From Chlamydiia bacterium (GTDB lineage: Bacteria > Chlamydiota > Chlamydiia > Chlamydiales > 2-12-FULL-49-11): a stretch of 64,000 nucleotides of DNA. Where the stretch lies: assembly GCA_022601435.1 (NCBI GenBank), contig JAJACQ010000025.1, forward strand, positions 10,563-74,562, written 5' to 3'. Below, piece after piece: positions 58,492 to 64,000 of this stretch. The notes under the pieces were generated by a model that was not told the DNA's origin, made no database searches, and was given only the letters and a program-made list of their open reading frames with translations. Position 1 is the first letter of the stretch; every line of letters starts with the position of its first letter. The translations under genes were made by a program, and so were the position numbers.

Positions 58492-59520
58492 TTAAATATC
58501 CATACTAAGAGCGCTCAATTGATTGAGTATCTTAGCTGAGAACTCACGAATGATACCTTCATGTTCATCTAAATCTGCTTTTTTAAGACGGCTGTCAAGA
58601 TCATTAAAAGAATTTATATGTTCTTCTTCTGTCAATAAATGCAACAATACTTCAGTTATTGCCTTCATCTTTTTAGCTAACGGAGTTTCGGTAAAATCGA
58701 AATGGAGAGGAAGAAGTGAGAAAGCCATATAGTTAGCTTCTACCGAATTAGATATAAGTCGTACTTTTTGCCAAGATGCCATATTCTGATCAGATCGATC
58801 TAAAAGAGTCTCACTTATCAATTCAAATAGGAAGTCAGCAAAATCTTCACTCTTTTGGGTATCAAGCATATACACTTTTATTTTCTTCGATAAAGTATCT
58901 CTTAACTTTTTTTCACTGTCTGTTAACTCAGTTTCTGCAAGTAACTCTGCTTTACTAGACGCTGAAGATAAACCAAGAAGACTGTTAGAATGAACCTCTC
59001 CGTCGTCTTCAGAATCACTCTTAGAAGCTGTTTCGTTTTTAGAGCTAATACTGTTAGAATGAACCTCTCCGCCATCTTCAGAATCACTCATAGAAGCAGT
59101 ATCGTTTTTAGAGCTAATTTTGTTTGGAGGGGTGTTGACCATGTAGTTATATTGACTTCTATGAGCCTCTCTAACAGCTAACAAAATTAATGTAACTGGA
59201 AAAAATATAATCAGAGCTATTAGCTTAAACACAACAAAAGCAACTTTCCCAGCAGTGGCACGTTCAGAACCTGGGCCCTCTGGTTCAATACTATATTGTT
59301 CTAATTCTTGATCATATTCAATTGATCTTGCATTTGTAATAAAAGGGTTTGCTAATAAAAATTCAATCACAGTCCTAGTATCGGCACATGGCATTGAATT
59401 ATTATAGATGTGGGATAAACGATCATTCGACCCTAAAACAAAACCTTGCTCCGCAACTATATTTATATCAATTTGATTTCCACCAGCAGAAGTCACACTA
59501 TTCATAAAAAATCCTAACAT
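58492..59520 (-). CDS. Putative inclusion-membrane/secreted protein, DUF648-like N-terminal domain
   Basis: FKLIALIIFFPVTLILLAVREAHRSQYNY hydrophobic hairpin; Ser/acidic linker; start may be the second Met (MNSVTS). Confidence 0.65.
   Translation of the reverse strand: MLGFFMNSVTSAGGNQIDINIVAEQGFVLGSNDRLSHIYNNSMPCADTRTVIEFLLANPFITNARSIEYDQELEQYSIEPEGPGSERATAGKVAFVVFKLIALIIFFPVTLILLAVREAHRSQYNYMVNTPPNKISSKNDTASMSDSEDGGEVHSNSISSKNETASKSDSEDDGEVHSNSLLGLSSASSKAELLAETELTDSEKKLRDTLSKKIKVYMLDTQKSEDFADFLFELISETLLDRSDQNMASWQKVRLISNSVEANYMAFSLLPLHFDFTETPLAKKMKAITEVLLHLLTEEEHINSFNDLDSRLKKADLDEHEGIIREFSAKILNQLSALSMDI
58981..59118 (-). repeat. 69-bp in-frame tandem repeat, 2 copies
   Basis: ISSKNDTASMSDSEDGGEVHSNS / ISSKNETASKSDSEDDGEVHSNS. 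Confidence 0.9.
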
Positions 59521-60552: not shown

Positions 60553-60568
60553 TCTGGTTCAAATAAGT

Positions 60569-60650
60569 GCCCAGGTGGTGAAATTGGTAGACACGCTAGA
60601 TTTAGGTTCTAGTGCTGTGAGGCGTGGAAGTTCGAGTCTTCTCCTGGGCA
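60569..60650 (+). tRNA. tRNA-Leu (anticodon TAG), CCA not encoded
   Basis: GCCCAGG/CCTGGGC acceptor stem, CTAGA-TTTAGGT-TCTAG anticodon arm, long variable arm, GTTCGAG T-loop. Confidence 0.97.
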
Positions 60651-60666
60651 TAATTTCAAAAAATAT

Positions 60667-61368
60667 ATGAGACCGAAAGATTTAGAGTTTACTATTAAGG
60701 GTTTTGAAACGCGGAAGCCATCTTTTTCCGACGGTGTTTTGACTATCCCCTCATATTTTGAAAAGCATGATAGAAATTTATTTCCGGAATTAAATACAAA
60801 ACTTGAACGCTATCAAACAATTCATGTTGAAATTTGCAGTGGTAACGGCGAATGGATTGCAGAACGTGCTCAAAAGAATCCTGAAATTCTCTATTTTGCG
60901 GTCGAAAAAAAATTCATGCGAATCAGAAAGATCTGGTCAAAGATGAAAAATAAAGGTCTTGAAAATCTAATCATTGTTTCTGGCATGGGAGAAGATTTTT
61001 TAGATCACTACCTTGATAGGGAATCCATTGATGAGGTCTTTGTAAACTTTCCTGATCCTTGGCCTAAAAAACGACACGCTAAACACCGCATTATTAAAGA
61101 GTCATTTTTAAAACCAGTCTATGACGTTTTGAAAGCCGACGGGCAAATCACTACAACTACGGATAGCAAGGAATATAGCGAGGAAATGATTGAAGTATTT
61201 AGCGCTTCTGATCTATTTAATAATCTTTATCCAAATGGCTTTACTCCTCTAGATGAATCTTACGGTGGATCTTACTTTAAAAGATTGTGGAGTGAGATGG
61301 GACGCAAAAATCGATTAATGACTTTTAAAAAAGTGGAAAAAGAATTATGCGCATCGCCGAAAATCTAA
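60667..61368 (+). CDS. trmB: tRNA (guanine-N7)-methyltransferase
   Basis: VEICSGNGEW, FAVE, VNFPDPWPKKRHAKHR, TTD. Confidence 0.93.
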   Translation: MRPKDLEFTIKGFETRKPSFSDGVLTIPSYFEKHDRNLFPELNTKLERYQTIHVEICSGNGEWIAERAQKNPEILYFAVEKKFMRIRKIWSKMKNKGLENLIIVSGMGEDFLDHYLDRESIDEVFVNFPDPWPKKRHAKHRIIKESFLKPVYDVLKADGQITTTTDSKEYSEEMIEVFSASDLFNNLYPNGFTPLDESYGGSYFKRLWSEMGRKNRLMTFKKVEKELCASPKI

Positions 61369-62339
61369 CCGCCTGTTTACAATCTTTAAACTCATACGAT
61401 TGTATTAACTTAAGTCTTGATGGATCACCTAGTAGTAATCTTTCATTTCCTGATTTAGATCATAAGATCGAAGAAATTCTAAACCTTGATAAAAAAATCT
61501 GCCTTGAACTCTTTTTGAATTTGCAAACTGAGTCTTTTTCTTTTTATAATCCTCTTGAATTCTCAATAAGAAAACGCTCTTTAGAAGTCCTACTAGAAAG
61601 GATTTCTAATATTCCTGAAGAAAAAATTTCTCACATAATTCTATATCGAGGTTCTATTGATTTTTCAAATCACATTAAACGTAACGTGCAACTTAATGAA
61701 GAATATCTGCTGTGGAAAAAAGATCTTCTGGAAAATGATATCGATGAAGAACACCTTTTACACATCTACTCATCAAAACTTATATCTGACTTTTTCCACT
61801 CACTTGCCGCCATTTTACCCGATCATATAAAAGCTGCCCTTCTACTTTCCTTGCCTCAAGAACTAGGCGTTGCAAAAACTTCTGAACTTATCTCTGAAGA
61901 AACTTTTTCTCATATCGATATCGGCATAAAAAACCCTCCCTTCTTTCACGAAGGAATCAGCTGGGGTCAAGGATCTGGCTTTCACTCCCTTTCATTTACC
62001 CCACAAAATTCCCTTGCCGAAGATGAAGTTAAAACTGCCGTGATACTCCCCTTCTTTGGAAACTGTAACTACAAACGATTTGAAAAAATCTGCGACAAAC
62101 TAAAAAAACGAAATATCCCCTTCAAAGTGATTGAAGAAAATCTTTTAAACGAAAAGTGGTTCGATATCGACGTGATCATTTTTGATCATGACTCAACCTC
62201 CTTCGACGGAAAACGAATGGTAGATGGCTTTATCGCGGCTGGGGGAAAAGCCTTCGTTTTTGATGACGAAAAAACCTACGAAAGAGAAAACGTCACCTCA
62301 GAATACGGATACTTAAATTTTGAAAGCTTCAATGCATAA
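61347..62339 (+). CDS. Hypothetical protein
   Basis: 330-aa ORF overlapping the trmB end; C-terminal IPFKVIEE..W..ID..GKRMVDGFIAAGG (possibly GATase-like). Confidence 0.7.
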   Translation: MRIAENLTACLQSLNSYDCINLSLDGSPSSNLSFPDLDHKIEEILNLDKKICLELFLNLQTESFSFYNPLEFSIRKRSLEVLLERISNIPEEKISHIILYRGSIDFSNHIKRNVQLNEEYLLWKKDLLENDIDEEHLLHIYSSKLISDFFHSLAAILPDHIKAALLLSLPQELGVAKTSELISEETFSHIDIGIKNPPFFHEGISWGQGSGFHSLSFTPQNSLAEDEVKTAVILPFFGNCNYKRFEKICDKLKKRNIPFKVIEENLLNEKWFDIDVIIFDHDSTSFDGKRMVDGFIAAGGKAFVFDDEKTYERENVTSEYGYLNFESFNA

Positions 62340-62363
62340 AAATGAATTTATTTAAAGAAATGG

Positions 62364-62393
62364 TTGATGGAAAACCTCTTGATGCCTTATACT
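62364..62393 (+). promoter_or_regulatory. Putative promoter of tRNA-Pro
   Basis: TTGATG-18 bp-TATACT, 17 bp upstream of the tRNA. Confidence 0.55.
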
Positions 62394-62410
62394 GATGCAT
62401 ACTTTTTTTT

Positions 62411-62485
62411 CGGGGTATAGCGCAGCTTGGCTAGCGCGTCTGGTTTGGGACCAGAAGGTCGGGGGTTCGAATCCCTCTACCCCGA
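62411..62485 (+). tRNA. tRNA-Pro (anticodon TGG), CCA not encoded
   Basis: CGGGGTA/TACCCCG acceptor stem, TCTGG-TTTGGGA-CCAGA anticodon arm, GGTTCGAATCC T-arm. Confidence 0.97.
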
Positions 62486-62923
62486 ACTTGTTACAACTAA
62501 CTCCTTTCGCTTCCCAAGAATCTTGGATTCAGAGAATGGGATGAGAACCCCCGAAGGGGTTCGAAAGCGAGCTAAAACATCTTGTTACACCGAATCTTCG
62601 AGCTTACCCAACAATGCGAAGCATTGTGCAGGAAATCCCTCTACCCCGAACTTGTTACTGTAATAACATTATACTACCAAAGCTTCTTGGACTCAGAGAA
62701 TGGGATGAGAACCCCCGAAGGGGTTCGAAAGCGAGCTAAAACATCTTGTTACACCGAATCTTCGAGCTTACCCAGCAATGCGAAGCATTGTGCAGGAAAA
62801 GCGAGCTAAAACATCTTGTTACACCGAATTCTTCGAGCTTACCCAGCAATGCGAAGCATTGTGCAGGAAATCCCTCTACCCCGAACTTGTTACAACTAAC
62901 CCTTTTGTCTCCCAAGAATCTTG
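62470..62923 (+). repeat. tRNA-linked nested repeat array (164-bp unit, 235-bp unit, partial third unit)
   Basis: AATCCCTCTACCCCGAACTTGTTAC at 62470, 62634 and 62869; 70-bp inner module at 62565, 62729 and 62799. Confidence 0.95.
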
Positions 62924-62969
62924 AACCCTAAGTAAGTTCTGAAAATAATTTTCTAATAAATTTTAAAAC

Positions 62970-64000
62970 CTATTTTTCAAGAGGAGGTTTTTCGTGGAGG
63001 GCGAAGGTTATTAAGATGGCGACTACCATGGAAAAGCAGCCCATCATTAAATAGCCTTGGGCGGCGGTGATGTCTATTACTTCGCCAAATAAGAAGAGCG
63101 TTGCAGCTCCGCACAAAACGGCGACGAAGCTTAGAAAAGTTCCGGCAGAAACAAAGCTTCCGCGGCTTTTTTCAGGACTTATAAATTGCACGTAGGCGTC
63201 TAATGGAACAATGTAGAGACCGCCGTGCATGCCGATAGAAAAGAACAAAAAGCATGATAGAATCAGGTTGTATTGGCAAACATATAGCAGGATATAAGAA
63301 GTAGCCGTTCCGTATCCTCCCCAAAGTGACAACCAAAGTTTTACGCTATCGGATGCAATAATGCTTACTAAAAAGGATCCAACGCCTAAGCCCAGGGCGG
63401 CGGCAAGGTACACGTATCCTGTTTGAATATCTGTTATACCTAAAGATTCGATGCCAAATGGAATTAAGTTTAATTGTGTGAATGATGCAGTATATAAAAA
63501 AAAGGCCGATGAAAAAAGAGCCAAGTTCAAATGTTTATATTCTCTTGCTGCTTTCACAGAGCGAAAAATTTGTGTAAGAAAAAAGAAGTTAACTTTTTTA
63601 TCAGGATCTTTAACGGGAGTTTTTTCTATCATATAAGAGGTAACTACTGCGATCACAGATATAAGAATGCAAAATATCACTATGAGCGGAAAGTTTCTTT
63701 TAGTCATTTCAGACAAAAAAGAAGCAAGAAACGTTCCTAGCAAAATAGCTAGGTAGGTAAACAGGGTCATATGACCATTTGCACGGGTAATGCGCGATTC
63801 AGGTTCGATTTCTGGAATGATCGAGTATTTCATAGGGCTAAAAAAAGCCGATTGTAATGCAATAAGAAATAGAGCAAAATAAGAAGTTACTTCATGGTTA
63901 TAGTAGATTGCAAAATAGGCAAGTATCATGAAGATGAGTTCAGCCCAGGATGTCCAGAGAATGATAGTCCGTTTACTCATCCTATCGCCCATTTGACCTG
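62970..64000 (-). CDS. MFS transporter, LplT/Aas lysophospholipid-transporter-like (5'-truncated by window)
   Basis: AGQMGDRMSKR, LQSAFFSPMKYSIIPE, ANG, GGLYIVPLDAYVQ; frame open to window end. Confidence 0.85.
   Translation of the reverse strand, partial: GQMGDRMSKRTIILWTSWAELIFMILAYFAIYYNHEVTSYFALFLIALQSAFFSPMKYSIIPEIEPESRITRANGHMTLFTYLAILLGTFLASFLSEMTKRNFPLIVIFCILISVIAVVTSYMIEKTPVKDPDKKVNFFFLTQIFRSVKAAREYKHLNLALFSSAFFLYTASFTQLNLIPFGIESLGITDIQTGYVYLAAALGLGVGSFLVSIIASDSVKLWLSLWGGYGTATSYILLYVCQYNLILSCFLFFSIGMHGGLYIVPLDAYVQFISPEKSRGSFVSAGTFLSFVAVLCGAATLFLFGEVIDITAAQGYLMMGCFSMVVAILITFALHEKPPLEK

Follow-up and report, generated by a model that had tools for sequence, protein, structure and literature searches.

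Introduction

The RtT repeats behind the tRNA-Tyr genes of E. coli have been known since the 1970s, and to our knowledge their role has never been settled. They were reportedly treated by Egan and Landy in 1978, by Rossi et al. in 1981 and by Bosl and Kersten in 1991, and the rtT RNA is said, in a study of E. coli, to be released by the enzymes that act on tRNA 3′ ends. A T-loop sublocation is said to have been listed by Williams in 2002 among the sites of tyrosine integrases in tRNA genes.

Here we followed up a sequence-only reading of a stretch of 64,000 nt, called the window below, from a Chlamydiia bacterium (contig JAJACQ010000025.1 of a 1.6-Mb, 41-contig assembly that is 88% complete). 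That reading had described a 70-bp cassette inside a rebuilt tRNA T-loop behind a tRNA-Pro gene, and had proposed either a recombinase-driven insert or an intron-like insert in a tRNA-mimic RNA. With a probability of about 80%, we regard the two units at this site as divergent members of the RtT family (Rfam RF00391), whose type is the 178-bp repeats, or rttR RNA, behind E. coli tyrT/tyrV, and the 70-bp "cassette" as the variable body of such units. What is new here is a divergent RtT member for which both the phylum and the host tRNA are new; our literature search, with the Rfam species list outside its scope, found no paper describing RtT units outside Enterobacteria.

The array behind tRNA-Pro

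Two tandem units adjoin tRNA-Pro on the same strand, the first of them starting 1 nt after the gene (Table 1). The plan of a unit is a trailer, a frame (an anti-T-arm GGGAUGAGAAC, a short hairpin and GUUCGA), a variable body bearing hairpins, and AAUCC joined to the 3′ end of the preceding tRNA. The 27-nt frame of unit 1 (62538-62564) is GGGATGAGAACCCCCGAAGGGGTTCGA, with its GGGGTTCGA part ending at 62564, and the 3′-terminal 24 nt of tRNA-Pro are GGGGTTCGAATCCCTCTACCCCGA. A repeat search found the tail ATCCCTCTACCCCGA plus ACTTGTTAC in three identical copies, GGGGTTCGAA in three copies, and an inverted copy of the T-arm, GGGATGAGAACCCCCGA (17 nt, 88% complementary). TRF reported two periods, 164 (2.0 copies, 90% matches) and 71 (2.0 copies, 98%). 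The window has two copies of the 17-mer at the junction, GGGGTTCGAAAGCGAGC, where 0.01 would be expected.

As the sequence-only reading had described, unit 1 has the 70-bp block once and unit 2 has it twice, at the coordinates of Table 1, and both units close with an exact copy of the tRNA tail. The sequence check, TRF and the repeat search all bear this out, together with the one extra T that brings the second block of unit 2 to 71 nt.

Table 1. Features of the array behind tRNA-Pro (window coordinates) and position of two further arrays in the same assembly (G000), named after their probable RtT assignment.
Feature	Position	Strand	Basis and remarks
Promoter-like site: TTGATG, 18 nt, TATACT	62364..62393	+	Sigma-70-like consensus match only; about 17 nt upstream of tRNA-Pro
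tRNA-Pro(TGG)	62411..62485	+	Rfam tRNA, 67.3 bits; ARAGORN
Tail: final 15 nt of tRNA-Pro, T-loop to discriminator, ATCCCTCTACCCCGA	62471-62485	+	Recurs in each unit
Trailer 1, 52 nt, begins ACTTGTTAC	62486..62537	+	Repeat search (family D3)
Unit 1, RtT frame: GGGATGAGAAC, hairpin GAACCCC-CGAA-GGGGTTC, GA	62538..62564	+	Exact family motif; R1 positions 1-35; hairpin in fold
Unit 1, body = 70-bp module; 3′ part ACAATGC-GAA-GCATTGT, then GCAGGAA	62565..62634	+	Sequence comparison, fold, model R1
Tail copy 2, equal to final 15 nt of tRNA-Pro	62635..62649	+	Repeat search (D3)
Trailer 2; ends resemble trailer 1, central ~21 nt unrelated	62650..62701	+	Repeat search (D3, 73% identity)
Unit 2, RtT frame, equal to unit 1 frame exactly	62702..62728	+	Motif search
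Unit 2, body copy 2a, 70 nt	62729..62798	+	TRF; absent from one run X2 contig
Unit 2, body copy 2b, 71 nt, one extra T	62799..62869	+	TRF; run X3 contig spans 62770-62870 without difference
Tail copy 3	62870..62884	+	Repeat search (D3)
Partial trailer 3, 89% like trailer 1; array end	62885..62923	+	Repeat search; unique DNA beyond
RtT array behind tRNA-Ser(GGA)	G000:C25:19542-19739	-	Locus L211
RtT array behind tRNA-Ser(TGA); last unit without tail	G000:C33:262-480	+	Loci L213/L006

Beyond the array there is unique DNA and then an MFS transporter gene on the opposite strand; the neighbours of the array are a methyltransferase, an unknown ORF and this transporter. Two ORFs have no Pfam match (61347-62339, 330 aa, + strand; 58492-59520, 342 aa, - strand). 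A tRNA-Leu(TAG) gene 1.8 kb upstream (60568-60651) has no RtT-like unit behind it, and is followed directly by a Methyltransf_4 (tRNA methyltransferase-like) gene.

The centres of trailers 1 and 2 (62495-62515 and 62659-62679, about 21 nt) are unrelated and their ends are about 90% identical, whereas the frame plus body of unit 1 differs from that of unit 2 at 1 of about 100 positions. This points to constraint or homogenisation on the frame and body, and not on the trailer. The sequence CTTGTTACA occurs five times in the window (62487-62505, 62581-62599, 62745-62763, 62815-62833 and 62886-62904), one copy per block and the others after a tail. In addition, AAAACATCTTGTTACACC in the block resembles the start of the tRNA-Pro trailer in a genome of the same genus (AACATCTTGCTATACC, locus L189). 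Judging from such sequence likeness, part of the body may derive from a trailer.

Assignment to the RtT family

The RF00391 consensus reads GGAUGAGAAC...GGUUCGA...AAUCCuuCcCccaCCACCA. At tyrT-tyrV-rttR of E. coli K-12, each 178-bp repeat contains GGGGAAGGATGAGAAGCTTCGACCAAGGTTCGA, a 67-nt body and ATCCTTCCCCCACCACCA, and with the body removed the sequence would read AAGGTTCGA-ATCCTTC..., which is the T-arm of tRNA-Tyr with its acceptor end. The T-arm is thus split in the E. coli units as well, and what had been described as a cassette inside a rebuilt T-loop is the layout common to the family.

The Rfam model itself gave only 14.0 bits in the window (E 5.7 in that search), below its gathering score of 45; one of the chlamydial units reached 46.8 bits and others 25.7-38.1 bits. 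A covariance model from homologs, a check proposed in the sequence-only reading, was built on 40 units with those of the window and of E. coli left out (model R1). The frame GGAUGAGAAC, the short hairpin and GUUCGA form invariant positions in 40/40 of these aligned units, and the window and E. coli share this frame. With R1, unit 1 aligned from end to end and scored 32.7 bits (E 2.9e-6 in the window), unit 2 scored 20.4 bits, with an alignment thrown off by the doubled body, and four of four E. coli units were recovered at 44.6-52.9 bits. Over the whole genome it returned five hits, all within three arrays.

Aligned to R1, the window unit agrees with the family in its frame, in its last hairpin and in the linker to AAUCCC, and not in the middle of the body; the usual body motifs of the family (e.g. 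CCCGAAGGGCGAG, or hairpins such as CCCGAAGGG-CGAG) are absent from the window units. BLAST of the units against 60 relatives returned matches to the tRNA tail only. Matches of the window to CRISPR-DR17 (Rfam, 23.5 bits) were rejected, being the frame hairpin read from the other strand.

The sequence-only reading had set beforehand, as a point on which it could be refuted, that the GGGGTTCGA arm should track the host tRNA. Among 61 distinct host-assigned units, the 10-mer made of the 5′ strand of the T-stem plus TTCGA is identical to the host in only 8, and the first three T-stem positions agree in 9. In the tRNA-Ser arrays of this genome, the frame has GGAGTTCGT where the host has GGGGTTCGA or TGGGTTCGA. 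On sequence comparison, the 5′ half is a constant of the family, the 3′ strand of the frame hairpin, and its resemblance to a T-arm comes from the general likeness of T-arms to one another. The parts that do track the host are the tail and the bases just before GGGAU that pair with the tail.

Fold and possible processing of the units

The minimum-energy fold of unit 1 has -32.2 kcal/mol (z -2.27), and 3 of 200 shuffles fold as well. It contains all three helices that had been noticed from the letters, namely two hairpins, CAATGC-GAA-GCATTG and GAACCCC/GGGGTTC, and the GGGAU/AUCCC closing stem. The A/G variant beside the first of these is A in block 1 and G in blocks 2a and 2b, and still lies opposite T. 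The block taken by itself was rejected as a structured RNA, as it folds no better than shuffles (z -0.73).

The closing stem of unit 1 is only 5 pairs long, since the T before GGGAU, where A or G would be needed, does not match the T-stem of tRNA-Pro. In the family, the closing-stem pair beside GGG/CCC covaries with the host tRNA (AU 12, UA 10, CG 3, GC 2, UG 1; n=40). The observed covariation score was matched by 1 of 500 column shuffles, a figure that the relatedness of the sequences can inflate. G-U pairs are present on this strand, as would suit folding of the transcript or of the sense strand. RNAalifold on a MAFFT alignment was discarded as a wider guide to the fold, since the bodies do not align and the closing stem alone was recovered.

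The loops of RtT bodies were surveyed in the same 40 units (alignment A1). They hold 42 C-GNA-G triloops on stems of at least 4 pairs, compared with 1.4 in shuffles (maximum 5 in 200), and only 8 GNRA tetraloops. GNA triloops closed by C-G are exceptionally stable DNA mini-hairpins.

A possible course of events can be put together from these predictions. The array could be co-transcribed with tRNA-Pro from the promoter-like site at 62364-62393; the consensus scan around tRNA-Pro returned 2 such sites compared with 1.2 expected in shuffles, and no terminator-like sites were found in 62250-63050. Each unit is predicted to fold into a three-way junction of the GGGAU/AUCCC closing stem, the frame hairpin and the body, in which the change of UC to GA in the inverted T-loop would place a tandem G-A/G-A step next to the frame hairpin, where the arms meet. 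The 3′ strand copied from the acceptor is predicted to stay free as a tRNA-like 3′ end. As is reported for E. coli rtT RNA, the enzymes of tRNA 3′ maturation would then separate the units at these ends.

The predicted three-way junction, in which a tandem G-A step adjoins the frame hairpin, also recalls a ribozyme. The core of the hammerhead follows the consensus C3 U4 G5 A6 N7 G8 A9 ... G12 A13 A14, and ribozyme-bearing satellites are arranged in tandem, as the window units are. The units could thus be read as a self-cleaving ribozyme or an intron-like element, with their GAUGAG-hairpin-CGAA core corresponding to the CUGAUGA-stem II-GAAA of the hammerhead. However, an invariant G G takes the place of C3 and U4, position 14 is mostly C and not A, and Rfam ribozyme models matched neither the window (E up to 10) nor, at E up to 1, eight loci with related units. 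For an intron, the units lack the 5′ half of a tRNA that would have to be spliced. We find this explanation scarcely credible. The intron-like insert in a tRNA-mimic RNA of the sequence-only reading was close in one respect, as the units are structured elements bearing a tRNA tail; with no tRNA 5′ half found in them by ARAGORN, they are not literal introns.

Distribution of RtT units

In this genome, GGGATGAGAAC occurs at six sites of shared plan: the two window units, two units behind tRNA-Ser(GGA) on contig 25 and two behind tRNA-Ser(TGA) on contig 33. The genome's units end in AAATCCC plus the 3′ end of their own tRNA (...ACTTCCTCCGA on contig 25, ...TCCTCTTCCGA on contig 33). The bodies of the tRNA-Ser units are short (about 55 nt), resemble one another and are unlike the tRNA-Pro block.

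An orphan piece of 39 nt (G000:C8:19122-19160; L003, about 1500-1545) is 85% like the 3′ half of the window block plus AAATCCC. Its hairpin reads CGACGC/GCGGCG where the block has CAATGC/GCATTG, with paired changes at two positions and one mismatch. It lies just after an ORF stop and about 105 nt upstream of tRNA-Ser(TGA), as the end of contig 8 overlaps the start of contig 33 by 130 nt; R1 gave no match to it.

Across 401 genomes of the order, the pattern GGGATGAGAAC-N3-14-GTTCG was found at 48 sites in 24 genomes, compared with 3 sites for the reversed control. Sixteen of the 23 loci read in the order lie directly behind tRNA-Ser, as arrays of 1 to 4 units; of the rest, L056 is at a contig start with visible tail copies, and six look like chance hits in coding DNA. 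Three loci (L043, L044 and L047) also have RtT-like 3′ ends (...GTCAATCCCTCCTC) 60-110 nt upstream of tRNA-Ser, a placement reminiscent of the RtT-like spacer that separates tyrT from tyrV in E. coli. In L056 (genome G210) and L048 (G119), insertions of about 190-200 nt are present in the first part of the body.

A scan of a species collection gave at least 120 matching stretches, of which 80 loci from many phyla were examined. Among the matches listed, 36 of the 80 loci have a tRNA on the same strand within 200 nt upstream, and 24 of these 36 have an exact 13-nt copy of its tail downstream. The hosts among the matches listed are tRNA-Ser, Gln, Glu, Arg, Lys, His and Gly, and the taxa include Sphingobacterium, Opitutales, Gamma- and Betaproteobacteria, Omnitrophota and Citrobacter; one listed record, from a Parachlamydia sp., is identical to a locus in a genome of the window's order.

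Among the 61 host-assigned units, no host is tRNA-Pro except in the window. The motif is absent from the 21 other genomes of the family, and none of 19 relatives has units at tRNA-Pro, where R1 matches nothing and the trailers cannot be aligned. These absences count against the RtT reading, which does not account for how the array arose. At 50-60 nt past tRNA-Pro, relatives of the same genus have no unit; what lies there is GGGATTCGAACCCCCGA, an inverted copy of the T-arm, or GGGATTCGAATCCCCGA, a palindrome resembling a T-arm (L190/G003 and L189/G001). The inverted T-arm pieces in G001 and G003 were considered as RtT relics and rejected, as R1 gave no match.

The window's DNA is present in three sponge metagenomes of one study, so that the organism is a sponge-associated member of the Chlamydiota. 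The other runs (X4-X20) contain small shares of the window only, with X13 covering just the tRNA, and are uninformative on habitat or expression; among the RNA runs, none extends beyond the tRNA part of the array.

Doubling of the block

Unit 2 reads TTCG-AAA-core-AAAA-core-AAA-TCCC, for which three phases are equivalent. The exact 70-bp boundaries given in the sequence-only reading therefore stand in part: the block is doubled as a block, and its ends can be placed only to within two AAA runs. That the block behaves as its own unit agrees with this doubling and with a contig in which unit 2 has a single block.

This 485-nt contig, from metagenome run X2, joins 62727 to 62798 and so has unit 2 with one body, one of the other module copy numbers that the sequence-only reading had proposed to look for. 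It could be an assembler collapse of a tandem repeat with 98% identity. A contig of run X3 crosses the junction of copies 2a and 2b (62770-62870) without difference. Some stretches of the array lack a contig in X2 or X3, to which we attach no weight. As one metagenome contig has unit 2 with a single block, the body copy number probably varies.

The body has a GAAA run at each border (TTCGAAAG and CAGGAAAT), and replication slippage or unequal exchange between the two could have produced the doubling. Exchange between these runs predicts a period of 69, where 70 is observed and one extra A must be assumed. In an unrelated member of the family, L098, the body has an internal tandem duplication with ends that differ from those in the window. 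We consider it likely that the doubling is ordinary repeat instability.

Are the units mobile?

The apparent variation in copy number can also be read in terms of an integrative element. The unit or the 70-bp block would then be a miniature element that a trans-acting tyrosine recombinase inserts and excises at the T-loop, with the tails as attL/attR-like identity blocks. As at islands borne by tRNA genes, each unit lies between direct repeats that reach from the T-loop to some 60 nt beyond the tRNA; the doubled segment ends at most 3 nt from the frame/body and body/tail borders, 19 relatives have no units at this tRNA, and contigs of different samples differ in body copy number. However, no integrase is found near any of the three arrays, and among the loci read in the order, arrays stop at differing points within the body. 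In this 88% complete assembly, the search for orphan tyrosine recombinases and HUH/RAYT nucleases proposed in the sequence-only reading returned two tyrosine recombinases only, for which XerD and XerC are the best-matching models; a Y1 (IS200/RAYT) transposase, as judged by PF01797, was not found. The search for empty sites that it had proposed gave no frame lacking a body in 401 genomes of the phylum and no empty-site joint (GGGGTTCGAATCCC inside a unit) in the contigs examined.

Recombinase-driven insertion or excision of a cassette at the T-loop is thus not supported, as the split GTTCGA/body/ATCC is fixed across the RtT family, E. coli included, the 5′ half does not track the host tRNA, which was the refuting condition set by the sequence-only reading, no empty sites were found in the genomes and contigs above, and the recombinases of the assembly are Xer-like only. 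The frame and parts of the body are conserved between E. coli and Chlamydiota, which is more in keeping with an inherited, structured element than with att sites. We therefore consider an integrative element very improbable.

Another explanation is a selfish DNA element with hairpins in single-stranded DNA, which would spread among tRNA genes by template switching at the near-universal T-loop GGTTCGAATCC and re-copy the local tail and trailer, the RNA being a by-product. A switch back to the T-loop would be expected to produce just the duplication of tail plus trailer seen here, and one frame is found behind at least 8 kinds of tRNA. The patchy occurrence of the motif (24 of 401 genomes in the order, 0 of 21 others in the family, with 0 of 19 relatives having units at tRNA-Pro) and the excess of C-GNA-G triloops (42 in 40 units compared with 1.4 in shuffles) are what such an element could leave. 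A BIME/REP cluster has also been likened to the rtT transcript (Naville and Gautheret 2010, PMC2965389). However, the genome has no Y1 transposase, no direct sign of movement was found, and the G-U pairs and the covariation that tracks the host fit RNA as well as DNA structure. A discrete RtT RNA is made in E. coli, according to the K-12 annotation and to the way in which others cite the original paper. On balance, spread as selfish DNA appears unlikely to us.

A related and similarly doubtful idea is that the RtT frame is a docking scaffold and the GUUCGA/AAUCC site the true exchange point for bodies, with units colonising tRNA genes by copy-choice at the T-loop or by recombination, perhaps on C-GNA-G hairpins of single-stranded DNA. 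If it were true, the RtT repeats would be a protein-less mobile element found across phyla and not an RNA gene.

Implications

On the RtT reading, which we prefer, a single locus such as this one is ordinary by itself. Its interest is that Chlamydiota, too, have the 11-nt motif and the split-T-arm plan, and have them behind tRNA-Pro, with a body that is nearly wholly replaceable while the frame and the tRNA tail persist. The copy number of the body can change within a natural population, if the single-body contig is not an assembler collapse. The comparison separates constrained parts (frame, closing stem and tail) from free parts (body and trailer), which gives a design for mutational tests in E. 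coli.

Comparison with known systems

Like the islands of tyrosine integrases, the window has direct repeats of the 3′ part of a tRNA, from the T-loop to past the gene. Unlike these islands, the "insert" measures 105-175 bp and contains no genes and no integrase, and its structured frame is shared across phyla. REP/BIME elements (RAYT) are likewise small, G+C-rich extragenic hairpins that are often arrayed, and a likeness in sequence between a BIME cluster and rtT is noted in PMC2965389. The window units differ from them in being tied to tRNA 3′ ends and in carrying a tRNA tail, in a genome without a Y1 transposase.

Compared with the RtT repeats at E. coli tyrT/tyrV, the window units have a different host, tRNA-Pro of a sponge-associated member of the Chlamydiota, with no encoded CCA. 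Their closing stem has only 5 pairs, one unit has a doubled body, and A+T-rich sequence takes the place of most of the body, so that the Rfam model fails (14 bits). Like the E. coli repeats, they lie directly behind a tRNA gene, on the same strand and in tandem. Both have the motif GGAUGAGAA(C/G), a short hairpin and GUUCGA, and both carry small body hairpins with C-GNA-G loops. Finally, both end in AAUCC plus the tRNA's own 3′ end, and in both a deletion of the body would recreate the T-arm.
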